A DNA stretch of 64,000 nt from Nitrospirota bacterium (lineage in GTDB: Bacteria; Nitrospirota; Thermodesulfovibrionia; UBA6902): assembly GCA_016213945.1 (NCBI GenBank), contig JACQZF010000001.1, positions 5,831 to 69,830 of the forward strand, in the 5' to 3' direction. Each line of letters opens with the position of its first letter. The first letter of the stretch is position 1. Under the pieces are notes generated by a model, which saw nothing but the letters and a program-made list of their open reading frames with translations, did not search any database and had not been told where the DNA came from. Both the position numbers and the translations under genes were made by a program. Shown here piece after piece: positions 42,099 through 56,203 of the stretch.

Positions 42099-43433
42099 AT
42101 GGCAAAGTTTTCAGTATTCCTGACGATCATGTTCCTGCTTGTAGTGGGCATACTGGCGTTCTTCAACAAGGACACAGTCAACCTGACGGTCTGGCAGGGC
42201 GTCACTTATGAAGTCCCGGTTATCGGCCTTATACTGATCTCCACCGCGGCCGGCATCTTCGCCATGTTCGTTGTCTTTTCCATCAGGGACGCAAGGCGGT
42301 TCTTCAGCAACTGGCAGTTCAACCGCCGCCAGAAGAAGGAATTGAAGATCCAGGAATCCTACACAAGGGGACTCGACGCCTTCTTTGCCTGCAGGTACGA
42401 AGAGGCGGAGGAGCTTTTCACAAAAGTTATTGAAGAAGACCCGTTCAATGTAAACGCCCTGCTGAGGCTGGGGGACATCGCGATCTATGAAGAAGATTAT
42501 TTCAAGGCCAAGGATTTTTATACAAGGGCCAAGGAAATAAAACCGCGCAGCGTTGAGGTATTGCTCTCGCTTGAAAAGGTCTTTGAGGGGCAGCAGAAAT
42601 GGAATGAGGCCCTGAAATATCTTGACACCATCCTTGAGATCGACGAAGAGAACCCTGAGATCCTTTACAGGAAACGCGATATATACGAGAGGGACAAAAA
42701 ATGGGAAGATGTTTTAGAGGTTCAGCACAAGGTGCTTAAATGTGATCTCTCTCCCGAAGAAGAGCAGGAAGAGCACAAAAAACATTTAGGCTACAGGTAC
42801 GAGCTTGGATGCCATTATCTTGAAACGAATAACACTGAAAAGGCGGTGAAGATACTGAAGTCCGTTATCAAGGCGGACAAGGACTTTGCCTCCGCGTACA
42901 TCGCGCTCGCTGAAGCTTATTTAAAAGACGGCAATACGGATGAGGCGCAGGAGCTTCTGCTGAAGGGATATGAAACGACCTCTTCACTGGTCCTGCTTGT
43001 GCGCCTGGAGGACTTTTTCATATCAATGGGAGAGCCGGGCACGATAATCGATCTGTATCAAAAGGCGGTGCAGAAAGACCCTCGTGACCTGAAGCTCCAG
43101 TTCTTCCTTGCGAAACTTTATTACCGCCTTGAGATGATAGATTACGCCTTTGAGACAATCAACGCTCTTGATACCAGCGCATTTGATTTTCCCGACCTGC
43201 ACATCCTTTTAGGCAATATTTACCAGAGACGCTCCCAGGCGGAAAAGGCCGCCGAGGAATTCAAGAAAGCCCTGAAAGTTGACAAGCCGCTGCTTGTGCC
43301 TTTTTGCTGCTCAAACTGCGGGTACACCTCAAAAGACTGGGGCGGGAGATGCCCTTCATGCAAGACCTGGAACACCTTCGTCCTGAATACATATGAAGTC
43401 TGCAAGACAAAGAAAAGACAGAGTAGTTCTTGA
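42099..43433 (+). CDS. LapB(YciM)-like TPR protein with fused N-terminal LapA-like membrane segment and C-terminal rubredoxin-type zinc ribbon
   Basis: Two N-terminal TM helices, then an RRFF segment, multiple TPRs, and C-terminal CCSNCGYTSKDWGGRCPSCKTW (CxxC...CxxC) as in LapB. Confidence 0.6.
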   Translation: MAKFSVFLTIMFLLVVGILAFFNKDTVNLTVWQGVTYEVPVIGLILISTAAGIFAMFVVFSIRDARRFFSNWQFNRRQKKELKIQESYTRGLDAFFACRYEEAEELFTKVIEEDPFNVNALLRLGDIAIYEEDYFKAKDFYTRAKEIKPRSVEVLLSLEKVFEGQQKWNEALKYLDTILEIDEENPEILYRKRDIYERDKKWEDVLEVQHKVLKCDLSPEEEQEEHKKHLGYRYELGCHYLETNNTEKAVKILKSVIKADKDFASAYIALAEAYLKDGNTDEAQELLLKGYETTSSLVLLVRLEDFFISMGEPGTIIDLYQKAVQKDPRDLKLQFFLAKLYYRLEMIDYAFETINALDTSAFDFPDLHILLGNIYQRRSQAEKAAEEFKKALKVDKPLLVPFCCSNCGYTSKDWGGRCPSCKTWNTFVLNTYEVCKTKKRQSSS

Positions 43434-43989
43434 TACAAGCCTTTTTGTAAATCCCGACGTTCGCAATGATTTCGGCGATTCGCCTACAGAGGCAATAAAT
43501 GGATTTCTCCAGATAGCGGAGCAGATACCCTCGCTCGAATTCTACATGCCCTCTTCCATCTTTCAGGAGCTCCTGAATTTTGTGAATGAAAAAGAGATCC
43601 CCGGCGCGCTTCTTGCCGTGCTTCATCAAAAGTCCCCAAGCAAGCATGAACTGACCTGCCCCGCCTTTTTCCTGTACGAGCTCATCGAAGATATAAGGGA
43701 GCGCGTTAACAAAGGATTAAGGATCGCTGAGAAGGCCGTAAGGACCGCGGGCAAAAGCGATGAACGTGAAGTCATCCAGGCCATGAGGAAAAATTACAGG
43801 GAGGCGCTTCGCGAGGGAATAATCGACAGCAAGGAAGACGTGGACCTGATATTGCTGGCAAAAGAACTCGACGCGCTCCTTGTCACCGTCGATCACGGCG
43901 CAATAAAATGGGCCGAGAAGCTGGGCATAAGATGGCTCCTGCCAAGCAAGTTCAAAGAATATCTGCTGAGCTTTATTCAGAACGACTGA
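43393..43989 (+). CDS. PIN-like domain protein (putative ribonuclease)
   Basis: N-terminal VVLDTSLFVNPD acidic PIN-type start. Later TVDHG. About 198 aa. Family assignment tentative. Confidence 0.4.
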   Translation: MKSARQRKDRVVLDTSLFVNPDVRNDFGDSPTEAINGFLQIAEQIPSLEFYMPSSIFQELLNFVNEKEIPGALLAVLHQKSPSKHELTCPAFFLYELIEDIRERVNKGLRIAEKAVRTAGKSDEREVIQAMRKNYREALREGIIDSKEDVDLILLAKELDALLVTVDHGAIKWAEKLGIRWLLPSKFKEYLLSFIQND

Positions 43990-44539: not shown

Positions 44540-44737
44540 ATGAGTGTCGGCGTCATGGTTGAGTTAAAGGTAGAAGACATTGCGGCTTCGATTAAGAAAA
44601 TGAAAAAATCAGATAAGGAAATGCTGCTCCTTATGTTGTCAGGAGAAGGCAAGGAAATTGCCAAAAGATTGAAAGAAGTAAATTCCCGAAAAGTAAAAAC
44701 TCTGACAAGAGAGGAGACCTTCAAGAATGTCCTTTAA
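44540..44737 (+). CDS. Putative antitoxin (65 aa) of a RelE/ParE-type module
   Basis: Small charged protein with a strong RBS (AAGGAGGTAAAAAATG). Overlaps the downstream RelE-family toxin gene by 11 nt. Confidence 0.45.
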   Translation: MSVGVMVELKVEDIAASIKKMKKSDKEMLLLMLSGEGKEIAKRLKEVNSRKVKTLTREETFKNVL

Positions 44738-45017
44738 GGATGAGTATCATCCGAAAATAAAATCAGATCTAAAAAAACTTGATAAAGCTGTTGCGCGAGA
44801 AATTTATGATGTACATATAGACAATATTTTACATCACCCCTTCGTTAACGAAAATCTTCACGGAGACCTTGAGGGTGCATCGAGCTACCATTTTAGAAAA
44901 AATAAGGCAGATTACAGAATTGCCTATTCAATTGATAAGTCCCGGAAAGTTGTTTATTTCCTGATGATGGCAAAGAGAGAAAATTTCTACGAGATATTGA
45001 AGAGACGGCTGCTGTGA
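44727..45017 (+). CDS. RelE/ParE-family type II toxin
   Basis: LHGDLEGASSYHFRKNKADYRIAYSIDKSRKVVYFLMMAKRENFY matches the RelE/ParE core (L.G...R.G.YRI.Y.I......V....R...Y). Confidence 0.75.
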   Translation: MSFKDEYHPKIKSDLKKLDKAVAREIYDVHIDNILHHPFVNENLHGDLEGASSYHFRKNKADYRIAYSIDKSRKVVYFLMMAKRENFYEILKRRLL

Positions 45018-45073
45018 AATATCGCCTATTTGGGGCTTTGATATAATGATATGAAAATCAATGGGGTTGAACA

Positions 45074-45343
45074 ATGATAAATGAAACAGATAAAACTATA
45101 ATTTTACAGTGTGCAAAAAAGTTTAATGTCGCTTCTGTTTTCCTTTTCGGGTCGTCTGTCGAGGACGACATGGAGGCTAATGATATAGATATAGCTGTCA
45201 AAGGGATAGAACCGCGCCTATTTTTCAAATTTTATGCGGAGCTGTTTAAGCGTTTGTCAAAACCTGTTGACCTGATAGACCTTTCCAGGAAGACTTTGTT
45301 TAACAACCTTGTGGAAGAGACCGGAGTAAAAATTTATGGGTAA
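45074..45343 (+). CDS. Minimal nucleotidyltransferase (MNT), no HEPN partner evident
   Basis: FLFGSSVEDDMEANDIDIAV (GS...D.D polymerase-beta-type nucleotidyltransferase motif), 89 aa. Confidence 0.75.
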   Translation: MINETDKTIILQCAKKFNVASVFLFGSSVEDDMEANDIDIAVKGIEPRLFFKFYAELFKRLSKPVDLIDLSRKTLFNNLVEETGVKIYG

Positions 45344-45360
45344 AAGTATGGAGGGATTTA

Positions 45361-45588
45361 ATGCTAAAAACCGTTAAGGGACATTACAGTAAAGGCAAAT
45401 TAGAACTTTACGAAAAGCCACAGGTAGAAGAATGTGACGTTCTTGTAACGTTTATCGAGAATGGCGAATCGATAGACCTTCAATCGCGAGGTATATCAAA
45501 AGAAGAAGCACAAGATTTAAGAGGCAGATTGCACACTTTTGAAGATGACTGGAACACGCCTGGGATGGAGCTTTATGACAGAGTATAA
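45361..45588 (+). CDS. Putative antitoxin paired with MazF
   Basis: 75 aa (VKGHYSKGKLELYEKP...VLVTFIE, swapped-hairpin-like). Overlaps the MazF start by 14 nt. Confidence 0.45.
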   Translation: MLKTVKGHYSKGKLELYEKPQVEECDVLVTFIENGESIDLQSRGISKEEAQDLRGRLHTFEDDWNTPGMELYDRV

Positions 45589-45898
45589 AAAAGGTATGGT
45601 TGTTTTAGTCTTATTCCCAAATTCGGATCTGATAACGGCAAAGCGCCGTCCAGCCTTGATTGTACAGGCTGATAATTTGAATACTGGATTGGATCAGGTT
45701 GTCGTGGCAATGATAACAAGCAACTTAAATCGTGACGGACATCCAAGTCGCTTTCGCATTAATAGAGATTCAGAGCAAGGGAAATCTGCCGGCATACTCA
45801 CGGATTCGGTAATAATGGCGGATAATCTTGCCACAGTCAGATTCAAAGAAATTGATAAGACATTGGGGACATTGCCGCTGTTGATAAGGCCCTTATAG
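45575..45898 (+). CDS. MazF/PemK-family endoribonuclease toxin
   Basis: GMVVLVLFPNSDLITAKRRPALIVQADNLN...VVVAMITSN...GILTDSVIMADNLATVRFKEIDKTLGTL is the canonical MazF/PemK pattern. Start moved to MTEYKKG. Confidence 0.8.
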   Translation: MTEYKKGMVVLVLFPNSDLITAKRRPALIVQADNLNTGLDQVVVAMITSNLNRDGHPSRFRINRDSEQGKSAGILTDSVIMADNLATVRFKEIDKTLGTLPLLIRPL

Positions 45899-46014: not shown

Positions 46015-49000
46015 TTGGCTTTGAGTGAAAGTATATTTCAGATTGGGCAAGTGGTTGCCTTGAAATCCAACCCATCGGTCATGGGTGTTATTACAAAAAT
46101 ATTGCGAGGCGATCACGAAACACGTTATGAAGTTTTTCATGGAAATTCAAAGAATATATACTATGCAAGCCAAATAATTCCTTCTCAACAAACTGAAGAA
46201 GAAATTAAGACGATACCGCTAAATTTATTTAATGCGAGATTAACGGCAATACAAATCAATTATCCCGGAATTGCATCTCTCTATTCTCTGCATTCTGCAA
46301 GAGTCAATTTTATCCCATTTCAATTTAAACCCGTCCTGAAACTTATCCGCTCTGACCGCCCAAGATTGTTAATTGCAGATGAAGTGGGAGTCGGTAAGAC
46401 TATAGAAGCGGGATTGATTCTCCGTGAATTGCAGGCAAGAATGAATATTAAATCTATATTGGTTTTATGTCCCAAGCCTCTTGTTACTGATCGAAAGTGG
46501 CAGCTTGAGTTAAAGCGTTTTGACGAAGAATTTACACACCTTGATGGTCCTGCTTTACGCTACTGTATTAATGAAACGGATTTAGACGGAAGATGGCCGA
46601 CTCAGCATAGTAAAACCATTATGCCTTTTTCACTTTTCAATGAGTCGCTCTTAACTGGAGAAGGAAAAGGAAAAAAGAAACAGAAGGGCCTTCTTGAACT
46701 TGACCCGCCGGTTCAGTTTGACCTCGTTATAATTGACGAGGCGCATCATTTGCGTAATACAAACACTTATATTCATCAGGTAGCACGGTATTTCTGTGAA
46801 AACGCAGAGGCTATACTCCTGCTCTCTGCAACACCTATACAATTGGGAGATAATGATCTTTATGTCCTGCTCAACCTGTTACGTCCAGACTTGATTATTG
46901 ACCGCAGCAGTTTTGAACACATGGCAGAACCTAATCCTTTTATTAACCAGGCAATAGATGTTGCACGTGCCGCTCAGCCTCAATGGGAAGCAAGAAGCAG
47001 GGCTGCTTTAAGTGAGGCATCGTTAACAAGCTGGGGGCAAAGAATGCTGAAAAGTAATCCTGATTTTCAACAGGCAATAACGCTTCTTGAAAATCCTTTG
47101 TCCGCAGAGCAACGCCTTGAATTTGTCCGGGCCACTGAACAATTTCATACATTTTCGGGGTTGATTAACAGAACAAGGAGAAGGGACATAGGCGCCTTCA
47201 CTCTCCGCAAATCAGAGACAGTTACGATTGAGTTTACTCAGGAACAGAAGGACCTTCATGATTCTTTACTGGATATACAAGCAGAAATGCTTGGCATGAT
47301 TCATGATCCCCAGCATATTAAATTTATGATGACAACACTGAGAAGACAGGCCTCAAGTTGCATTCATGGGCTTGTTCCATTGATGCAGGCTATATTGAAC
47401 AGGAATCTAAGCAGGGTTACAGATGGTGATAATCTTGAGGAAGATTGGGAAGAATCATTAACTGCATTTAACGACGCTATCCAGAAGATAACCAAACAAG
47501 ACCTTACAAGTCTTATGAGTAAATTTCAGACCATTATTGAAGCAGGGAAAAGACTTAATAAAAGAGATCCGAAATCAGAAGCATTGCTAAATGTAATAAA
47601 ACAAAAACAGTCACTCCCTAATAATAAAATTCTGATTTTCAGTACCTTCCGCCATACACTGACTTATCTCTATACGAAAATGGTCAAGGGCGGGGTAAGG
47701 GTTGGAATGATACATGGCGATATCAAAGATTATGAGAGACTGGAACTAAGACATCGTTTCAGTCTGCCAAAAGAGAACGCTGATGCAATAGATATCCTGC
47801 TTTCCTCTGAAGTCGGTTGTGAAGGATTGGATTATCAATTCTGCGATTGCATGGTTAACTATGATATACCCTGGAACCCCATGAGAGTTGAACAGCGTAT
47901 CGGGCGCATAGACAGATACGGGCAGAAGAGCGAGAGTGTGCTTATCTATAACTTCATCACTCCTGACACAGTGGATGCAGATATATATGAACGCTGTCTT
48001 ATAAGAATCGGGGTTTTTCAAAGAAGTCTTGGAGGCAGTGAGGAGATATTAGGGAAAATCAGTCGGCAGATAATGGATATAGCAGAAAATTATAAGCTTA
48101 CGGAAGACGAAAGGAAAAGAAAATTGCAGCAGCTTGCAGATAATGAAATCCGCCTTCAAATGGAACAGGATGAATTGGAAGAAAGGCAGGCAGAGCTATT
48201 CGGGCTTAGTCTTCCGCTGGATAAAGCGAGAAAGGATATTGAAGACGCGAGTAGTTTCTGGCTTAGCCCTGAAGCGCTGCAGAATCTTGTAGAAACATAT
48301 CTGCAAAAAGTCACCGGAGCAGAACAATCCCTTCTTGGAGAGAAGGACTCAAAAACATTGCGGTTAAATCAAGAGGCAAGAAATAGACTTTTATCAGATT
48401 ACCGTCAGATACCGAAACAATCTTCCCCTGTTTATAGGGACTGGGAGAAATGGCTTAAGGGTGGAGATGCACATCTTCCGCTTACTTTTGACGCCGGGTA
48501 CGCTACAGAAAACCGGGACATTATTTTTATTACACCAGTCCACCCTCTTATACGTCAGGCGGCATCTACACTCCATGAGAAGCCGCCTCTTTATGTCATT
48601 GTTAGATATCCTGGTTATTCAATACCATCTGGGAAGTATCCATTTGCTGTTTACCAATGGCAAAAGACAGGGGTCAAATCAGATGCGGAGTTTCAGGTGA
48701 TTTGTAGTTCAGAAGCTGTTTCCAGCTCCTTTATGCAGTTGATTACAACAGCAACCGATGCAGAAGAAGGCCTTTATGGACTACCGGACAAGCATGTTTT
48801 TGACGAACTGGATAAGCAGCATTACGGTCTGTGGATTAATGCGAGAGATAAACACGTTCAGAGTAATAACCGAATGATAGAATTTCGTACCGAGAGTTTA
48901 AAAACGAGTCATAACGCAAGACTGAATCAACTGAATGATCTGTTAAGCAGGGCGGAAAACGATAGGATACAACGCATGAGAATTAGCCAGATTGCATCGG

Positions 49001-49104
49001 CAGAGGTTGATTTCCAGAGACGGATGAAAGAGATAGAAGAAGCGAGAACAAAGGCAGATATTATCAGTGAGCCAGTGGCTTTTGGGGTATTTATTATTGA
49101 ATAA
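46015..49104 (+). CDS. SNF2/SWI2-family helicase (1029 aa) with small N-terminal beta-rich domain and long C-terminal extension
   Basis: Motif I LIADEVGVGKTIEAG. DEAH box LVIIDEAHHLRN. Motif III LLLSATPIQL. C-lobe ILIFSTFRHT... and DIPWNPMRVEQRIGRIDRYGQ (motifs V/VI). Coiled-coil region about 680-720. 13-nt gap to the next gene. Confidence 0.85.
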   Translation: MALSESIFQIGQVVALKSNPSVMGVITKILRGDHETRYEVFHGNSKNIYYASQIIPSQQTEEEIKTIPLNLFNARLTAIQINYPGIASLYSLHSARVNFIPFQFKPVLKLIRSDRPRLLIADEVGVGKTIEAGLILRELQARMNIKSILVLCPKPLVTDRKWQLELKRFDEEFTHLDGPALRYCINETDLDGRWPTQHSKTIMPFSLFNESLLTGEGKGKKKQKGLLELDPPVQFDLVIIDEAHHLRNTNTYIHQVARYFCENAEAILLLSATPIQLGDNDLYVLLNLLRPDLIIDRSSFEHMAEPNPFINQAIDVARAAQPQWEARSRAALSEASLTSWGQRMLKSNPDFQQAITLLENPLSAEQRLEFVRATEQFHTFSGLINRTRRRDIGAFTLRKSETVTIEFTQEQKDLHDSLLDIQAEMLGMIHDPQHIKFMMTTLRRQASSCIHGLVPLMQAILNRNLSRVTDGDNLEEDWEESLTAFNDAIQKITKQDLTSLMSKFQTIIEAGKRLNKRDPKSEALLNVIKQKQSLPNNKILIFSTFRHTLTYLYTKMVKGGVRVGMIHGDIKDYERLELRHRFSLPKENADAIDILLSSEVGCEGLDYQFCDCMVNYDIPWNPMRVEQRIGRIDRYGQKSESVLIYNFITPDTVDADIYERCLIRIGVFQRSLGGSEEILGKISRQIMDIAENYKLTEDERKRKLQQLADNEIRLQMEQDELEERQAELFGLSLPLDKARKDIEDASSFWLSPEALQNLVETYLQKVTGAEQSLLGEKDSKTLRLNQEARNRLLSDYRQIPKQSSPVYRDWEKWLKGGDAHLPLTFDAGYATENRDIIFITPVHPLIRQAASTLHEKPPLYVIVRYPGYSIPSGKYPFAVYQWQKTGVKSDAEFQVICSSEAVSSSFMQLITTATDAEEGLYGLPDKHVFDELDKQHYGLWINARDKHVQSNNRMIEFRTESLKTSHNARLNQLNDLLSRAENDRIQRMRISQIASAEVDFQRRMKEIEEARTKADIISEPVAFGVFIIE

Positions 49105-49117
49105 AGGGGGACAGTAG

Positions 49118-52100
49118 ATGAGTGACCAACTTAATTTTCTTTCAAGCGTGTTGGCAAAGCGCATAAAATGGGTTGAGGCAAACAGAGAAAACGACTTTGA
49201 AGAAGGCATTCAGACCCTTCTTACAGAATTATATCCAGATACAGCCCATTTCATATTTGAGCTCTTGCAAAATGCCGAAGACGCAGGAGCAACAAAAATT
49301 GTATTCAACCTGAAGAAGAATATGTTGAGAGTTACTCATAATGGCAAACGGGTGTTCGATGAGAAAGATGTTGAATCCATCACTAACATAGGCAAGAGTA
49401 CAAAAAAGGATGATGTAAACCAAATTGGCAAATTCGGCGTGGGCTTTAAATCGGTGTTTTCATACACAAGTACCCCTCTCGTACATTCCTGTAATTTTTC
49501 GTTTGAACTGAGGGATCTCGTCTGTCCGTATGCCATACAAAAACCTCTCGATTTAGGGCAACACACGTTGTTTGAGTTTCCTTTTAATCATGAAAAGAAG
49601 AACGCCGAGCAGTCGTTCAATGAAACTGCCAATATGCTCCAGTCATTAAAAGAAAATGTGCTTTTATTTCTGAACAATATTGATGAAGTAGAATGGCAGA
49701 TAGAAGGGCAAGGAAGAGGGTTTGTCACACGGCTGCCCTATAACGAAAACCATATAGAGATAGATTACCAGAGCGTAACCGGCGAAAGGGCAACCTCTCA
49801 CTGGTTACGTTTTACTAAGCCGTATAGGGAAGATGCAAAACTGCATATAGCAATAGCATTTAAACTATCCTTTGTGTCAGAGGTTCAGAGTCTGTTGGAC
49901 GATAAGAAGACAATCGCAAAACAAATGACCATATCGCCAATCTACGGCAGACTTTCAATCTTCTTCCCTGCTGAAAAGGAAACGACAAACCTCAAGTTTC
50001 ATATTCACGGCCCTTATGCCTCAACTGTCGCAAGAGACAGTATTCCTGATAAGAACGAGGGTAACAAAAAACTTCTGCAAATGACGGCTTCCCTGTTGGC
50101 AGAAAGTCTGCATAAAATACAAGAAATGGGACTGCTCACAGCGGAGTTTCTTGCCGTGCTGCCTAATGATACTGATGAACTGGCAGAATTCTATAAACCG
50201 ATTCAGGCAGCAGTTATTAAGGAAATGAAATCAAGCCCACTTGTCCCTACGCACAGTAAAGATTTTGCTTCGGCAGACAATCTGTATCAGGGACCAGCAG
50301 CTATTCGGGAAGTTATTTCTGACGATGACCTTGGATTCCTTTCGGATACGGACCAAGTTAAATGGGCGATTGGAGTTATGCAAAACTCACGGCAAGAAAA
50401 GTTCATGAAGACGTTGGGGATAGACGAGTGGGGATGGCCTGAACTTACGGAAGCAATTGAAGATAAATTCTATTCAGCGGATAAAAATGCTCTTTCATGG
50501 CTGTCACATAGAAAAGATATGTGGATGCAAAAATTATATGGTCTATTAAAAAAAGCATTGGATTCAGAAGAGATACGTCCTTGGAAATTAAGACAGTGCG
50601 AGATTATAAGATTAGAGTCAGGGGAGCATACAAGCGGTGATGGAGTTTATTTCCCGGATTTGATAGATAAAGATAGCAAAGGCACAAGCGCTTTACCTCG
50701 TGTTAGAACAGAAATATTTAAAGGCAGAAAAGAACAAATCGAAAAGATTCGTCAGTTCCTTGAGTATATGGGTGTCAAGGAAGTCGGCGAAAAGGAGGAG
50801 GTAGAGTATATATTCAAAACATATTATTCAGAAAACTCTAAAAAAACTCCTTCTATTAAGCAACATATTCAGCATATGAAGAAATTCATATCTTATTGGA
50901 ATGGTCATAAGGAAGATACTGTAGATATGTTCTCAGGTTATGAAATATTTCATGACTATTCCGGCTCAACTCTCCGTTCAGCAGAAGAATTGTATATTGA
51001 CATGCCTTATCTTGAAACAGGACTTACAGATTTTTTTCAAAATACAAAGAATGTAGAGGTGAAAAAATACAAGTTATGGGATGGTTATGCGGAAAAAAGA
51101 ATTGCTAATTTTAAAGAGTTTACTAAAGCTGCTGGTGTGATGCATGGATTAGAACTTAGAAAAGCTTCAGCAACACTATTGCAACCAAGGATTTTTCAAA
51201 AAAATGGTAACCAGACAGTCAATACTATAAATCAAGATCATTTTGTTAATGGTCTACACTGGTACAATAAGCAATCATCCAAATACATTGGGATGTTTAA
51301 GTTAGATTGCAATAATATTTATCTCAGTAAGCTGCTCTGGAAATGTATGAGCAACGCTTCCCCGGAGATATTAAGAGCAAAATATAAACCAAATGCACAG
51401 TATAATGAGACAACAGATTCGTCATTAGTTATAAAACAACTTAAGGAATATAGCTGGATTCCTGATAAGAAAGGCAACTTTCATAAGCCATGTGATATTA
51501 CCCAAGACATGCTTCACAAAGATTTCCCTTATGACGACAGAAACGGGTGGCTAACAGCTATCGGTTTTGGAGAAAACCAGAAAAAACAAACAGAAGAATA
51601 TAAGACATTTAAAACACTATGTGAAAATATGGGGTTTGATGATGACACCTTCGAATTAATAAATGAATTGAAGGGAATAGCATCGGACGAGCAAAAGCAA
51701 TTATTGAAAGATATCATTGGTCAACTGAAGACAAAGAGACTCAACCCATCTTTCCCCGAAAAAGAATCCGCCGATCCTGAAAGAAGGGCCTCTAAGATCA
51801 AGGAAAATTTAGCAGGCGCACCCGAAAAGGAATATGAAGTAAGGGATCGCTCCGTTAGAACGACTTCTAATGAAATCAAGCCGGATGGCAAAATATATCT
51901 CCGTAACAATTATACGAATGAGGATGGAGAAATGTTCTGCCAAGTATGTAAAGAAGTTATGCCGTTTAAGCTTGACGATGGCTCTCATTACTTTGAGGCT
52001 GTAGAGTGCATAAAAGACTTTCCCAAGGAATGCAGGGAAAACTACCTCGCCCTCTGTCCAGTTTGCGCAGCCAAATACAAACACGCCAATACCTCTAAAC

Positions 52101-52240
52101 CGGAAGACCTCCGTGCAAAGCTTTCGGATACTGACAACGAGGACCTCTCAATTCCTGTAACTATTGCCCGTGAAGACAAAACAATCCGCTTTGTGAAAAT
52201 CCATCTGGAGGATTTAAGGACAATATTAAATGAAAAGTAA
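49118..52240 (+). CDS. Large GHKL (Bergerat-fold, sacsin/Hsp90/MORC-like) ATPase protein (1040 aa) with C-terminal Cys-rich HNH-like zinc-finger motif
   Basis: N-box FELLQNAEDAGATKIVF. G-box GKFGVGFKSVFSYT. C-terminal CQVCKEVMPFKLDDGSHYFEAVECIKDFPKECRENYLALCPVCAAKYKH (CxxC-H-N-CxxC-H pattern). RBS AAGGGGGA. Confidence 0.7.
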   Translation: MSDQLNFLSSVLAKRIKWVEANRENDFEEGIQTLLTELYPDTAHFIFELLQNAEDAGATKIVFNLKKNMLRVTHNGKRVFDEKDVESITNIGKSTKKDDVNQIGKFGVGFKSVFSYTSTPLVHSCNFSFELRDLVCPYAIQKPLDLGQHTLFEFPFNHEKKNAEQSFNETANMLQSLKENVLLFLNNIDEVEWQIEGQGRGFVTRLPYNENHIEIDYQSVTGERATSHWLRFTKPYREDAKLHIAIAFKLSFVSEVQSLLDDKKTIAKQMTISPIYGRLSIFFPAEKETTNLKFHIHGPYASTVARDSIPDKNEGNKKLLQMTASLLAESLHKIQEMGLLTAEFLAVLPNDTDELAEFYKPIQAAVIKEMKSSPLVPTHSKDFASADNLYQGPAAIREVISDDDLGFLSDTDQVKWAIGVMQNSRQEKFMKTLGIDEWGWPELTEAIEDKFYSADKNALSWLSHRKDMWMQKLYGLLKKALDSEEIRPWKLRQCEIIRLESGEHTSGDGVYFPDLIDKDSKGTSALPRVRTEIFKGRKEQIEKIRQFLEYMGVKEVGEKEEVEYIFKTYYSENSKKTPSIKQHIQHMKKFISYWNGHKEDTVDMFSGYEIFHDYSGSTLRSAEELYIDMPYLETGLTDFFQNTKNVEVKKYKLWDGYAEKRIANFKEFTKAAGVMHGLELRKASATLLQPRIFQKNGNQTVNTINQDHFVNGLHWYNKQSSKYIGMFKLDCNNIYLSKLLWKCMSNASPEILRAKYKPNAQYNETTDSSLVIKQLKEYSWIPDKKGNFHKPCDITQDMLHKDFPYDDRNGWLTAIGFGENQKKQTEEYKTFKTLCENMGFDDDTFELINELKGIASDEQKQLLKDIIGQLKTKRLNPSFPEKESADPERRASKIKENLAGAPEKEYEVRDRSVRTTSNEIKPDGKIYLRNNYTNEDGEMFCQVCKEVMPFKLDDGSHYFEAVECIKDFPKECRENYLALCPVCAAKYKHANTSKPEDLRAKLSDTDNEDLSIPVTIAREDKTIRFVKIHLEDLRTILNEK

Positions 52241-52286
52241 TCTCAAATTAGAGACCTCAGGTTTTTAGATATTACTTTAATATTTT

Positions 52287-54014
52287 TCATTCCTTCTTTT
52301 TCAACACCCACAGCAAAGCCCTCGCCCTCGTCGCTCCGACATACAGATTCGAGGGCTTACATGCCGGCAGATGTCCGTCGATACTGCAGAGAATAACAAC
52401 ATCAGCCTCAAGTCCTTTAAATGACTGTATCGTTCCCACACGGATTTTGCCTTGTCCCTTTTTGACCATGTCCGTCGTGAACAGGTCTTTTCCTTCTTCG
52501 ATCATCTGTTTTATACCGGCCCTTTGGTTGTCATATTTATAGGGAGACAGCACAACTATTTCATCGGGGGAAACCTTTTGCTTTCTGAGAAGATCATCTA
52601 ACAATCCTTTTAGCAGAACCGGAACTTCATTGATATCAGAGTAATATTTAACCTCAGGTTTCGGCCCCTCGTTTACAGCATATTGGGCTTTCCCCGGTAT
52701 GTTTCCGATCTTGAGCGCAAAGTCACCAATAGGTTTTGTATTCCGTACATTCTGTTCCAGCACAAAAGGTTCTGCCATAAAAGGGGCATTCCATTCTCCG
52801 CTTTCGTTATACAGGTTCTGGTTCCTGTCGTAGAACACATAATAAGAATGGTTGTCAGCTCCCAATGATTCAAGCGATATCCACCATGTGTCTTTAAAGT
52901 CGAGCGCTTCATCAACGATGATGGTGTCATATTTATGCGCGATAAACTCGGAAGTCTTCTCAAGAAGTTCCGCGCAGCCGGTATCAAAGAAATGCCGTTT
53001 CATTTCCTCTTCATCCGGGACTTCATAAGTGACCGCATGTCTTTCACAGAGCCTCTTGACGAGCTCATGGAAATTAAGCACATCTATCCTTTCATTACCC
53101 TGAAATTCAAAAGCAACATATTCGGCAAGGTTCTTATTGAAGCAAGTGAATAAAACTTTCTTGCCATCATTTATATGGTCATGTGCAAGTCTCACTGCAA
53201 GTAGCGTTTTGCCTGAACCTGCACAGCCTTCAACAAGGAGACGCTTCTGCATTCTCAAAGCCCTGAGCGTCTTGATCTGTCCCTCGGTCATCCTGTAGAG
53301 GTTGTCTTTTATAGTCCCAAGCACAACTCCTAACGGCGGCAGCATATTCACTTCTGGGGCAAGGGACCTTATCAGGGAATCGATCTGAGAACGAGACCAT
53401 GGGGCTGGATTGGGAGATGACTGGCGCATGATATTCCTAAGATGGTTAGAGCAATTTTTCAGATGTCTTGAATCGAGAACAAATCCATTATGAGGAACCT
53501 CAGGCGGGACATCCTCTGTCCATGTGATATCAGGAAACCATGCTGTATGAGTAAATACAGTGGACTTTAAAAACTCCTGTCCGATGGGTGTCTTTTTCAG
53601 TCTATCAAAGAGGTAATACCGGCTGCGGCCTGCCTGTTCAATGGGGGAATGCATTCTGCTGACAACGCTTCCATCGAAGAGGCTCACATAATACCACTCC
53701 CCGTCCTGCAGCTTGACCCCGCCTCCCTTGACCTCAACTACAAGGACACCTAAATCCGGGTGAAAGATGATCAGATCAATTTCGCCGGAACGCTCGCCGC
53801 TTCTTTGATCGATCTCTCTCCATGCAAGATTGTGAAAAATCCTCCAGTCATCATTCAGATCAGAAAGCGCATCGAGCACTCTTTTTTCAGCATGGTACCC
53901 GGTTCTCTCGATTCCCCGGGATTCATCTGTGTCGAATGGGGGATAAAAGATTGCCATATCAGCAAATAGCTTACAACATATACGCATTATTAGGCATAAC
54001 TTACTGTAAAACAT
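52287..54014 (-). CDS. NERD-domain + SF1 (UvrD-like) helicase
   Basis: N-terminal NERD pattern (...GEIDLIIFHPDLGVLVVEVKGGG...). Walker A VEGCAGSGKT. Walker B TIIVDEALDF. Motif V/VI (TIQSFKGLEADVVIL; YVGATRARALLWVL). True start may be the internal MAIFYPPF. Confidence 0.8.
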   Translation of the reverse strand: MFYSKLCLIMRICCKLFADMAIFYPPFDTDESRGIERTGYHAEKRVLDALSDLNDDWRIFHNLAWREIDQRSGERSGEIDLIIFHPDLGVLVVEVKGGGVKLQDGEWYYVSLFDGSVVSRMHSPIEQAGRSRYYLFDRLKKTPIGQEFLKSTVFTHTAWFPDITWTEDVPPEVPHNGFVLDSRHLKNCSNHLRNIMRQSSPNPAPWSRSQIDSLIRSLAPEVNMLPPLGVVLGTIKDNLYRMTEGQIKTLRALRMQKRLLVEGCAGSGKTLLAVRLAHDHINDGKKVLFTCFNKNLAEYVAFEFQGNERIDVLNFHELVKRLCERHAVTYEVPDEEEMKRHFFDTGCAELLEKTSEFIAHKYDTIIVDEALDFKDTWWISLESLGADNHSYYVFYDRNQNLYNESGEWNAPFMAEPFVLEQNVRNTKPIGDFALKIGNIPGKAQYAVNEGPKPEVKYYSDINEVPVLLKGLLDDLLRKQKVSPDEIVVLSPYKYDNQRAGIKQMIEEGKDLFTTDMVKKGQGKIRVGTIQSFKGLEADVVILCSIDGHLPACKPSNLYVGATRARALLWVLKKKE

Positions 54015-54090
54015 AGGACACCAGATGGGAGAGGTCGGGACATATAATAGAAATCAAAAAGGATTATTGAAATAAGGAAGAGGGACAGCA

Positions 54091-54489
54091 TTGATCATGA
54101 TGAATATGATTGTAATCAAAACAAATAACGAGCAGTACAAAGAATTTCTTGAAAAATACGCTCCGGATATTGAATATATTATGAGAGGGTTAGCGAGGCA
54201 TTATAAATTCCGCCCGCCAAAAAATATAATCTTCCGTCCAATGCGGAAAATAGGCAGCCAGCATTTTATCCGCTGTGTTTGGGCAAACGCCGGTTGGAGT
54301 CATGGTGCAGGATATTACATATCGTTAGACATGGAATCTAATATGCCCTTAAGCAGATCGCGAATCCTCGATACAATTGCCCACGAAGCCGCCCATATTG
54401 CAGAAGTATTAACGACGAACGAATGTACGCACGGAAAGAGGTGGCAGGAGCTGTATGGGACTGCGAAGGAAATTTTGAAAGCTCAATGA
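54091..54489 (+). CDS. SprT-like zinc metallopeptidase domain protein
   Basis: HEAAH zinc-binding motif (TIAHEAAHIAE) followed by THGKRWQ, the HExxH...HG pattern of the SprT/WLM family. Confidence 0.6.
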   Translation: MIMMNMIVIKTNNEQYKEFLEKYAPDIEYIMRGLARHYKFRPPKNIIFRPMRKIGSQHFIRCVWANAGWSHGAGYYISLDMESNMPLSRSRILDTIAHEAAHIAEVLTTNECTHGKRWQELYGTAKEILKAQ

Positions 54490-54510: not shown

Positions 54511-55035
54511 TTATCTGTCCGTTGAGTCCCTGAAAAGTGACGGCCCCCTTGAATACTCTTTCTGCCTTATTATGGTGAGCACCCTGTTATCTTGCATCTG
54601 ATAGTAAATATAAAGCACATCCGATTGCCCGAATTCGAACAGGTGATATAACGGTCTCAATTCATATCCGATGGGATTGCCTTCGTTATCAACAATCCTG
54701 CTCAGCCTGGAGCGCATAAAAGCGCTGTTGAATCTGACGAACCTTTCCGCTTCCTCAAGTGCCTCTTTTGCCGGCAGGCCTTTCTTCACTGTGTAATCAT
54801 ATTCAGGCGCGTATATCTCAAAGGTGTACCGGTCTCCCTCTTTATCAAGGACCGCCACGTTCTCGACATCGTCGCTGTACCTTCCGCCGTGAAGCAAAAG
54901 GGTGTAAGTCCCCCGTATCTCCTCAGTTGTGGCGGGGCCTGTGCCCAGATATTTTCCGGCGGCACAGGAATACAGAACTGATACGCATGATATAAATATA
55001 ATTGTTGTTAAGACATTTGGACTTTTCATATTCAT
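54511..55035 (-). CDS. Hypothetical lipoprotein
   Basis: Signal peptide with lipobox-like LYSCAAG. Confidence 0.4.
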   Translation of the reverse strand: MNMKSPNVLTTIIFISCVSVLYSCAAGKYLGTGPATTEEIRGTYTLLLHGGRYSDDVENVAVLDKEGDRYTFEIYAPEYDYTVKKGLPAKEALEEAERFVRFNSAFMRSRLSRIVDNEGNPIGYELRPLYHLFEFGQSDVLYIYYQMQDNRVLTIIRQKEYSRGPSLFRDSTDR

Positions 55036-56116: not shown

Positions 56117-56203
56117 TGGTGCCGAAGGCGGGATTTGAACCCGCACAGCCTTTCGACCACTAGACCCTGAACCTAGCGCGTCTGCCAGTTCCGCCACTTC
56201 GGC
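56117..56203 (-). tRNA. tRNA-Leu (anticodon CAG), long variable arm, encoded CCA
   Basis: Reverse complement reads GCCGAAGTGGCGGAACTGGCAGACGCGCTAGGTTCAGGGTCTAGTGGTCGAAAGGCTGTGCGGGTTCAAATCCCGCCTTCGGCACCA. Cloverleaf with anticodon loop TTCAGGG, type II variable arm, T-arm GGTTCAAATCC. Confidence 0.85.

Follow-up and report, generated by a model that had tools for sequence, protein, structure and literature searches.

We describe a gene for a self-contained nuclease–helicase in a 64,000-nucleotide stretch of DNA (the window) from a Nitrospirota bacterium (GenBank assembly GCA_016213945.1, contig JACQZF010000001.1, positions 5,831 to 69,830 of the forward strand). The gene (minus strand, 52287–53957; coordinates without a locus label are those of the window) joins an N-terminal NERD (nuclease-related) domain to a compact superfamily 1 (SF1) helicase. 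We propose, with confidence that stands about level, that it is an intact solo transcription unit and a candidate single-gene anti-phage defence acting on the nucleic acid of invaders. The evidence is of three kinds: catalytic and ATPase motifs that are preserved throughout the family, a variable and defence-rich genomic context of the relatives, and the membership of distant relatives in the operons of helicase-based immune systems. Few immune effectors simpler than a nuclease–helicase in a single polypeptide can be conceived, and to our knowledge only some of these, Nhi among them, have been tested; the window gene is a well-supported candidate of this kind.

The window gene pairs a NERD nuclease with an SF1 helicase

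The mechanical open reading frame (ORF) comprises 575 codons at 52287–54014 on the minus strand in the ORF listing, and the preliminary description of this DNA, made from the sequence before the present analysis, spoke of a 575-amino-acid protein. That ORF exists, but its product is probably shorter. The first 19 codons (53958–54014, minus strand), an in-frame 5′ extension, are absent from most of 31 aligned homologues and show no conservation in those few with an N-terminal extension; most of these homologues start at a MAIFYPP-like sequence, which in the window begins at 53957. An NCBI entry from a metagenome-assembled genome, 'NERD domain-containing protein' of a Nitrospirae bacterium, is 556 residues long and 100% identical to the window product. 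Since the 19 codons are not conserved and the identical database protein has 556 residues, the coding sequence was placed at 52287–53957 (556 codons plus stop), its start being set by the family alignment, and the true product is probably 556 residues long instead of 575. The alignment comprises 32 sequences (the window protein and the 31 homologues) and reaches down to 32% identity. By identity to the window protein, relatives were grouped into clade A (50–71%), clade B (39–44%) and clade C (32–33%, with other clade-C loci down to 27%).

The nuclease domain (residues 20–142; 53532–53900, minus strand) matches the Pfam NERD profile (PF08378) with an E-value of 1.2e-13 and 51.9 bits against a gathering cut-off of 22.1, over ORF residues 39–142. 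Throughout the alignment, residues E24, E59, D61, E75, K77 and Q108 are invariant; the computed minus-strand codons of five of them are E24 at 53886–53888, D61 at 53775–53777, E75 at 53733–53735, K77 at 53727–53729 and Q108 at 53634–53636. Judged from the sequence, the E…D…ExK residues form the pattern of a PD-(D/E)xK nuclease. The catalytic residues of the NERD domain have therefore been kept and, with Pfam profiles above cut-off and motifs intact in both halves of the protein, the preliminary description's reading of a fusion between a NERD nuclease and an SF1 helicase holds. When residues 1–235 were modelled alone (predicted local distance difference test, pLDDT, 82), the top fold matches in the PDB were VC1899, Card1, Shedu SduA, Bax1 and NucS; these matches are weak (E = 7.6e-4 to 0.2), yet consistently to PD-(D/E)xK nuclease domains. 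By sequence, the N-terminal domain had no significant match in the PDB. A NERD enzyme with a characterized role in immunity is ZwsA (Zowangsin), an RNA endonuclease that acts selectively and defends against RNA phages. Alanine substitutions of its NERD residues E535, D567, E580 and K582 impaired defence, and the K582A variant was used as an inactive control. The E…D…ExK pattern is common to ZwsA and the window protein; ZwsA, however, contains VHS, DUF647 and S4 domains and has no helicase.

The compact helicase core (residues 237–556; 52290–53249, minus strand) was delimited from Pfam matches, motifs and the alignment. It exceeds the Pfam cut-offs (in brackets) of UvrD_C_2 with 34.9 (27.4), ResIII with 31.9 (22.5) and AAA_12 with 30.2 (27) bits, and a match to SLFN-g3_helicase was also seen. 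The three motifs quoted in the preliminary description are all present in the translation: GCAGSGKT, aligned as helicase motif I, at residues 244–251 (53205–53228, minus strand), IIVDEALDF at 346–354 and VGATRARAL at 540–548. The other motifs are motif II, DEALD (349–353), Q380, NVRNT (403–407), FKGLEADV (513–520) and VGATRAR (540–546). Within Walker A, G244, A246, G247, G249, K250 and T251 are invariant across the 32 sequences and C245 and S248 nearly so; D349, E350, Q380, R405, N406, FKGLE (513–517), Y539, G541 and R544 are also invariant. Going by these alignments, every helicase motif of the window protein is intact.

Between the two domains lies a region without a Pfam match (residues 143–236; 53250–53531, minus strand), its secondary structure being taken from the structural model. 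The AlphaFold2 model of the full-length protein (mean pLDDT 85) lays the chain out as an α/β nuclease (about residues 20–142), a helical linker (143–236) with one disordered loop (204–213) of low pLDDT, and two RecA-like domains that carry no large accessory insertion. Among solved structures the sequence comes nearest to HelD, SLFN11 and Upf1, and UvrD-type DNA helicases are matched more weakly; by fold, the best matches of the full-length model are SLFN11/14, Upf1, Sen1 and IGHMBP2, and UvrD was also matched. Human Schlafen 11/14 and Upf1-like SF1B helicases give the best structural matches (Foldseek E = 2e-19), and Schlafen 11/14 likewise join a nuclease domain to this type of helicase; their identity to the window protein, however, is 13–15% and the nuclease fold of SLFN has no relation to that of NERD, so that the likeness is an analogy and not a family relationship.

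A patchy family that defence catalogues half cover

Members of the family have about 550 residues and occur patchily across Nitrospirota, Pseudomonadota, Chloroflexota, Planctomycetota, Actinomycetota, Cyanobacteria and other phyla, with at least 309 confirmed relatives among 185,579 species representatives. Plasmids yielded 17 full-length copies, and a phage contig one more. The family is patchy and moves horizontally, living in defence islands and on plasmids; it extends over hundreds of species and at least eight phyla, and its active sites are intact.

The best match of the window protein in PADLOC is PDLC03813, 'RTasNERD-Hel' (E = 8.8e-64, 214.5 bits), a full-length match in which ORF residues 38–574 align with positions 13–513 of the 519 in the model. 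A 'NERD+UvrD' candidate model comes second (8e-26), and the AbiO, Nhi, GajB and MkoA models match only around the P-loop or in the C-terminal helicase lobe. None of the curated NCBIfam families scored above its cut-off. RTasNERD-Hel is a NERD-helicase, cluster 485 in Mestre et al. 2022, that neighbours 7 of 17 UG34 reverse transcriptases (RTs). It shares with the window protein the two-domain architecture, the length class and the full-length hidden Markov model match, but the UG34 partner is absent from the window locus, and the RT link itself is known from genomic association. The scanned ORFs between 39.2 and 59.9 kb contained no RT domain, and the locus no structured RNA of Rfam besides a tRNA-Leu; on these grounds an RT association of the window copy was rejected. 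Among the relatives, the 25 Pfam families listed as most frequent for 122 immediate neighbours include no RVT family. Because the RT partner is absent and no curated NCBIfam family matches, rule-based tools would not call the window gene as a defence system. PADLOC thus half-catalogues the family, solely as the accessory of a rare RT system, which leaves solo copies unflagged by current pipelines.

The preliminary description had pointed to single-gene nuclease–helicases as a recurring anti-phage architecture and proposed a comparison with Nhi. Nhi (SERP2475) is a single-gene nuclease–helicase immunity protein of staphylococci for which both activities are required; homologues have been reported in Firmicutes, Bacteroidetes and Proteobacteria, and its helicase was modelled on Dda. 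The window protein resembles Nhi in that a single chain carries a PD-(D/E)xK nuclease at the N terminus and an SF1 helicase after it, and its family resembles Nhi in horizontal spread, frequent carriage on plasmids and defence genes nearby. By sequence, however, the window family is not Nhi: judged from PADLOC profile scores and not from direct sequence comparison, as also for the ArmD-type proteins below, there is no full-length homology, the Nhi model covering only residues 239–290 around Walker A (E = 1.8e-9). In addition, where the Nhi helicase was modelled on Dda, that of the window is nearest to HelD, SLFN and Upf1. A likeness to Gabija, in which the UvrD-like GajB adjoins the OLD-family protein GajA, is similarly limited, as GajB matches are partial (E = 3e-9 or weaker) and there is no AAA_15/TOPRIM gene in the scanned neighbourhood.

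Relatives lie in variable, defence-rich surroundings

Genomic context was sampled at 80 loci from species-representative genomes and 80 from metagenomes, together with contigs of close relatives and plasmid records; L-numbers (L044 to L182) label individual loci, and counts cover 162, 164 or about 168 loci. The 122 immediate neighbours match 121 different Pfam families, and the NERD-helicase has no conserved partner and no conserved synteny. A defence-type gene is present in the flanks of 72 of 168 loci and directly adjacent in 41, where the gene set counted was BREX, YprA-type helicases (DrmA/DruE) with DrmB, TmtA, SNF2, WYL, DUF2779, kinase and Eco57I-like genes and the reference proteins were taken from these same loci. 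YprA-type helicases or DrmB are present in the flanks of 34 of the 168 loci and directly adjacent in 22. BrxC and PglXI occur together in seven loci, and Eco57I-like restriction–modification genes and PD-T4-6-like kinases also lie near relatives. Toxin–antitoxin modules adjoin the NERD-helicase in L082, L084 and L175, and PIN/VapBC and HEPN–MNT modules as well as ParB/RepB plasmid partition genes are found among the neighbours.

Regulators of the WYL type, whose co-localisation with defence systems is on record (PMC9122601), were found as WYL-HTH-WCX (HTH, helix–turn–helix) genes in 18 of 162 loci, within 1.4 kb of the NERD-helicase in 13. They accompany all three clades, including five clade-A loci (they lie directly beside the NERD-helicase in L082, L084, L085, L087, L088, L044, L046, L110, L126, L132 and L138), and the genes listed are mostly on the same strand as the NERD-helicase with gaps of 1–370 bp. 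Over the roughly 168 loci, then, the surroundings of the relatives are variable and rich in defence genes, not consistently those of core DNA repair, in agreement with the context that the preliminary description expected.

Two further arrangements were noted. DUF2779 proteins (about 490–580 residues) adjoin NERD-helicases or lie near them in L059, L079, L085, L052, L108, L177 and L168, and are also found near a Gabija-like pair. In L173 (2252–9479) a relative with 63% identity is convergent on a trio of genes encoding a PLD–SNF2 helicase, an HSP70-like protein and an HTH_GRAD protein.

Clade-C relatives are the last genes of DISARM-like and Druantia-like arrays

In clade C, whose members are 27–33% identical to the window protein, conserved co-directional arrays end with the NERD-helicase, and their stop and start codons overlap or nearly so. 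One such array, consisting of a gene for a protein of about 625 residues, a DrmA-like gene, DrmB (DUF1998) and the NERD-helicase, occurs in L072, L142, L150, L156 and L179, one carrier being an Azospirillum plasmid. In another, a gene for a protein of about 1200–1350 residues and a DruE-like YprA helicase precede the NERD-helicase (L071, L106, L115, L117, L120 and L170); one carrier is a Leisingera plasmid, and two of these arrays sit between BrxC and PglXI. No clade-A member has the DrmA–DrmB or DruE-like terminal arrangement, and within the window clade (at least 50% identity) the gene is solo. No description of the terminal-gene arrangement was found in the main text of the literature searched.

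The position of the gene in these arrays has counterparts in known systems. DISARM encodes the PLD nuclease DrmC after DrmA–DrmB, and the NERD-helicases of the five loci with DrmA–DrmB occupy the same place, directly after that pair with overlapping stop and start codons; the NERD-helicase, however, has another nuclease fold and a helicase in addition, and the likeness holds for relatives at 27–33% identity, not for the window clade. ArmD of ARMADA type II, which is essential for defence and is encoded alongside an SNF2 helicase, joins a RelE-like RNase at the N terminus to a GajB-like SF1 helicase. It is thus built, as the window protein is, from an N-terminal nuclease-type domain and an SF1 helicase, and it follows a YprA-family helicase as the clade-C proteins follow DruE-like helicases or DrmA–DrmB. 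The differences are that the N-terminus is RelE in one and NERD in the other, that GajB models match the window protein weakly, and that the window has neither a YprA helicase nor a methylase; the YprA helicase of DISARM, Druantia and ARMADA (DrmA, DruE and ArmC, respectively) is present only with clade-C relatives. Because the last-gene slot matches that of DISARM DrmC and of ARMADA type II ArmD, the NERD-helicase family demonstrably serves, in clade C, as a component of helicase-centred immune systems, and this operon membership is the strongest of the indirect evidence for an immune function.

The adjacent SNF2 and GHKL genes

The window gene is convergent on two plus-strand genes. The first (46015–49104) encodes a DrmD/BrxHII-like SNF2 helicase, which matches DrmD in PADLOC at 1.3e-110 and reaches 323 bits against the cut-off of 610 of the NCBIfam family DISARM_DrmD. 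The second (49118–52240) encodes a sacsin-like, TmtA/Tiamat-like GHKL ATPase of 1040 residues (Pfam SACS, 2.6e-21), for which the TmtA model PDLC03972 is matched over residues 7–794 (2.3e-64, 216 bits) and there is no match to NOV_C, the NOV_C/DUF3883 domain being the C-terminal part of TmtA as the sacsin-like GHKL domain is the N-terminal one; the Tiamat entries of PADLOC are TmtA models only. As the preliminary description stated, the GHKL gene and the NERD-helicase gene meet 3′ to 3′: the former ends at 52240, and the stop codons are separated by a spacer of 46 bp (52241–52286) that holds a weak hairpin (z = −1.7, not significant) and in which no terminator-like site was found.

The SNF2→GHKL pair, which matched no rule-defined system, is a conserved module in many genomes, also without a NERD-helicase. 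All three genes recur together only in L081, a Nitrospirae contig, where the three proteins have 62%, 56% and 51% identity to those of the window. The flanks there are unrelated and the gene order is rearranged, the helicase being divergent from SNF2 instead of convergent on GHKL; in neither locus is it co-directional with the pair. The GHKL homologue of L081 (2819–5736) is split by a frameshift into ORFs of 183 and 806 residues, either as a pseudogene or through an assembly error, and the NERD-helicase and SNF2 genes are intact. Bona fide TmtA genes precede a same-strand NERD-helicase at a distance of 0–3 bp in L053 (5181–11707; 694 bits in PADLOC) and L171 (2142–8704; 1279 bits), one carrier being a Sphingomonas plasmid, which suggests a two-gene variant of Tiamat. 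A GHKL or TmtA-like neighbour was nevertheless seen in only four of about 168 loci, most relatives having neither SNF2 nor GHKL genes nearby, and on the Leisingera plasmid the SNF2 gene near the NERD-helicase has no GHKL pairing. The association is suggestive, and no stronger than those with other systems. Given four associations in some 168 loci, and a GC (guanine-plus-cytosine) content of 0.46 for the window helicase against 0.39–0.42 for the SNF2/GHKL pair, we consider functional coupling of the window helicase with the pair to be doubtful.

The SNF2→GHKL arrays themselves vary. Some have a gene for about 300 residues in between or a HEPN_Swt1 domain on the SNF2 protein, and others continue with an HsdM-like methylase and a 1269-residue SF1 helicase (variant loci L166–L168, L181 and L182). 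That large helicase was considered as a relative of the NERD-helicase and rejected, as only the P-loop matches.

A candidate single-gene defence and its alternatives

In the mechanism that we propose, a Mg-dependent PD-(D/E)xK endonuclease domain (NERD) would be tethered through the helical linker to a compact SF1 ATPase/translocase. The helicase would load on the nucleic acid of an invader (DNA of a phage or plasmid, or replication intermediates) and track along it at the expense of ATP; the N-terminal nuclease would then cut this nucleic acid and so restrict the element's replication. Such an action would be analogous, not homologous, to that of the unrelated Nhi, and in the window clade the gene would act as its own transcription unit. 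It is the genomic context that points to an anti-phage function, and we infer the substrate, the coupling of the two activities and the autonomy of the protein from the SNF2/GHKL genes.

It should be emphasized that several observations weigh against this proposal. The GC content of the window helicase is near that of the core genome, unlike that of the low-GC SNF2, GHKL and toxin–antitoxin block, and no WYL regulator is present beside the window copy. In clade C the protein belongs to multi-gene systems, and autonomy may therefore not hold. AddAB-like genes adjoin the relatives in L086, L176 and L060, and SbcCD-like genes the relative in L092. The modelled fold appears closest to Upf1/Schlafen-type enzymes, which act on RNA or single-stranded DNA, and the literature searched held no validated member of the NERD-helicase family.

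It could be argued that the NERD-helicase is the nuclease or effector arm of a three-gene system with SNF2 and GHKL, either ARMADA- or DISARM-like without a methylase or an extended Tiamat. The joint recurrence of the three genes in L081 amid unrelated flanks and in a different order speaks for such a system, as do the true TmtA genes just upstream of the NERD-helicase in L053 and on the Sphingomonas plasmid and the place of distant relatives as integral last genes of helicase-based systems. ARMADA type II, moreover, needs a nuclease-domain SF1 helicase (ArmD) beside its SNF2 helicase, and SNF2→GHKL arrays elsewhere carry a methylase and a large SF1 helicase. That large helicase, however, is not homologous to the window protein beyond the P-loop, the pair exists without a NERD-helicase, few of the relatives' loci have a GHKL/TmtA-like neighbour, the genes are never co-directional, their GC content differs, and in L081 a frameshift splits the GHKL gene, the helicase being intact. 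We put the chance of the three-gene system at slightly above one in five. A related notion is that the NERD–SF1 helicase is an exchangeable cassette for a 'nuclease slot' of helicase systems, replacing PLD or Vsr nucleases, and that it completes a methylase-less SNF2 and GHKL system in the window and in L081. It draws on the loci in which the NERD-helicase closes an array behind DrmA–DrmB, a DruE-like helicase or TmtA, and we consider it rather improbable.

The nature of the substrate bears on a further alternative, in which a NERD endoribonuclease and an Upf1/Schlafen-like RNA helicase would be directed at phage transcripts, RNA phages or tRNA. Because the fold is Upf1/Schlafen-like and one NERD enzyme is an RNase, the substrate could be DNA or RNA, and the best folds (SLFN11/SLFN14, Upf1, Sen1 and IGHMBP2), the AAA_12 and SLFN-g3_helicase matches and the selective RNA endonuclease activity of ZwsA are all in keeping with RNA. 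However, HelD is the solved helicase nearest by sequence and UvrD-type DNA helicases match less well, the NERD fold matches the DNA nucleases SduA, NucS and Bax1 as well as Card1, distant relatives occur in DNA-targeting DISARM, Druantia and BREX arrays, and the window protein has no RNA-binding accessory domain; an RNA-directed role thus seems unlikely to us. A housekeeping or stress-induced nuclease–helicase of DNA repair or recombination, similar to Dna2, AddAB or RecB, stays alive as a minor rival because a few relatives adjoin AddAB-like or SbcCD-like genes; WYL regulators also control DNA-damage responses, DriD being an example, and the GC content of the window copy is core-like. Against it stand the patchy distribution (the 309 or more relatives among 185,579 representatives), copies on plasmids, synteny that is not conserved, neighbours that include toxin–antitoxin, BREX, DISARM, Druantia and Tiamat genes, and no curated NCBIfam repair family above cut-off, and we judge a repair function to be quite unlikely. 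That the gene is an orphaned accessory of a UG34/DRT reverse-transcriptase defence system is suggested by the full-length RTasNERD-Hel match, a cluster found beside 7 of 17 UG34 RTs; with no RT domain in the ORFs scanned, no Rfam RNA except the tRNA, and RVT missing from the most frequent neighbour families, this origin is very improbable.

If the window gene protects alone, as we propose, it would be one more compact defence gene. If it is instead a swappable nuclease module for systems of the DISARM, Druantia and Tiamat types, it would help to explain how multi-helicase systems destroy the DNA of invaders.

The SprT-like gene, the toxin–antitoxin block and the island

A small plus-strand gene (54091–54489, 130–132 residues) with the motif HEAAH is transcribed divergently from the NERD-helicase; the 133-bp region shared by the two genes (53958–54090) has a single weak promoter-like match for the plus-strand gene. 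The preliminary description counted this SprT-like, HExxH…H metallopeptidase-like gene as part of a compact defence neighbourhood. Its motif and orientation are as described, but the match of the 132-codon ORF to Pfam PF10263 is slightly below the cut-off (24.7 against 25.6 bits), and none of 164 related loci shares the gene. A full HMMER scan of 1.84 billion representatives found 39 related clusters (120–150 residues), and a word-indexed search for relatives found only the protein itself. In 20 relatives the second histidine of HExxH is invariant, the glutamate and the distal histidine are nearly so, and the first histidine is replaced in a few; the only context obtained for a relative was a 1-kb contig, which is uninformative. 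The gene appears from these comparisons to encode a real but rare small metallopeptidase-like protein. Because the Pfam match is sub-threshold and co-occurrence is nil, it looks like a chance neighbour that adds nothing to the defence argument. A partnership of the NERD-helicase with the SprT-like gene, orf174, the dienelactone hydrolase gene or the toxin–antitoxin genes was rejected, tblastn showing co-occurrence in none of 164 loci.

Beyond the SprT-like gene lies orf174 (54511–55035, minus strand, 174 residues), which has no match in Pfam, NCBIfam, PADLOC or PHROGs and is co-directional with the dienelactone hydrolase gene across a 10-bp gap. A tRNA-Leu(CAG) gene (56117–56203, minus strand) lies 1.6 kb beyond the SprT-like gene, on its right-hand side, and is not demonstrable as an attachment site. 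Neither a direct repeat of the tRNA-Leu 3′ end nor an integrase was found, and repeats between 43.3 and 56.7 kb are short and at chance level. GC content is what suggests the island boundaries, dropping from 0.48 to 0.36–0.40 at about 44.1 kb.

The low-GC left part of the island holds a toxin–antitoxin block (44540–45898, plus strand) with a GC content of 0.38 against 0.48 in the flanking core. The toxin–antitoxin genes that the preliminary description placed in the neighbourhood are present, and the view of a defence-island-like region stands on these genes, on the low GC content and on the defence genes beside relatives, with no contribution from the SprT-like gene. Upstream of the block is a PIN_5 gene (43393–43989). 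Within it, on the plus strand, matches to Pfam or NCBIfam identify a ParE-like gene (44727–45017), an MntA-like gene (45074–45343) and PemK (45539–45898), accompanied by small putative antitoxin ORFs. The MntA-like antitoxin has no recognisable HepT partner, and the PemK gene is preceded by an ORF of 75 residues.

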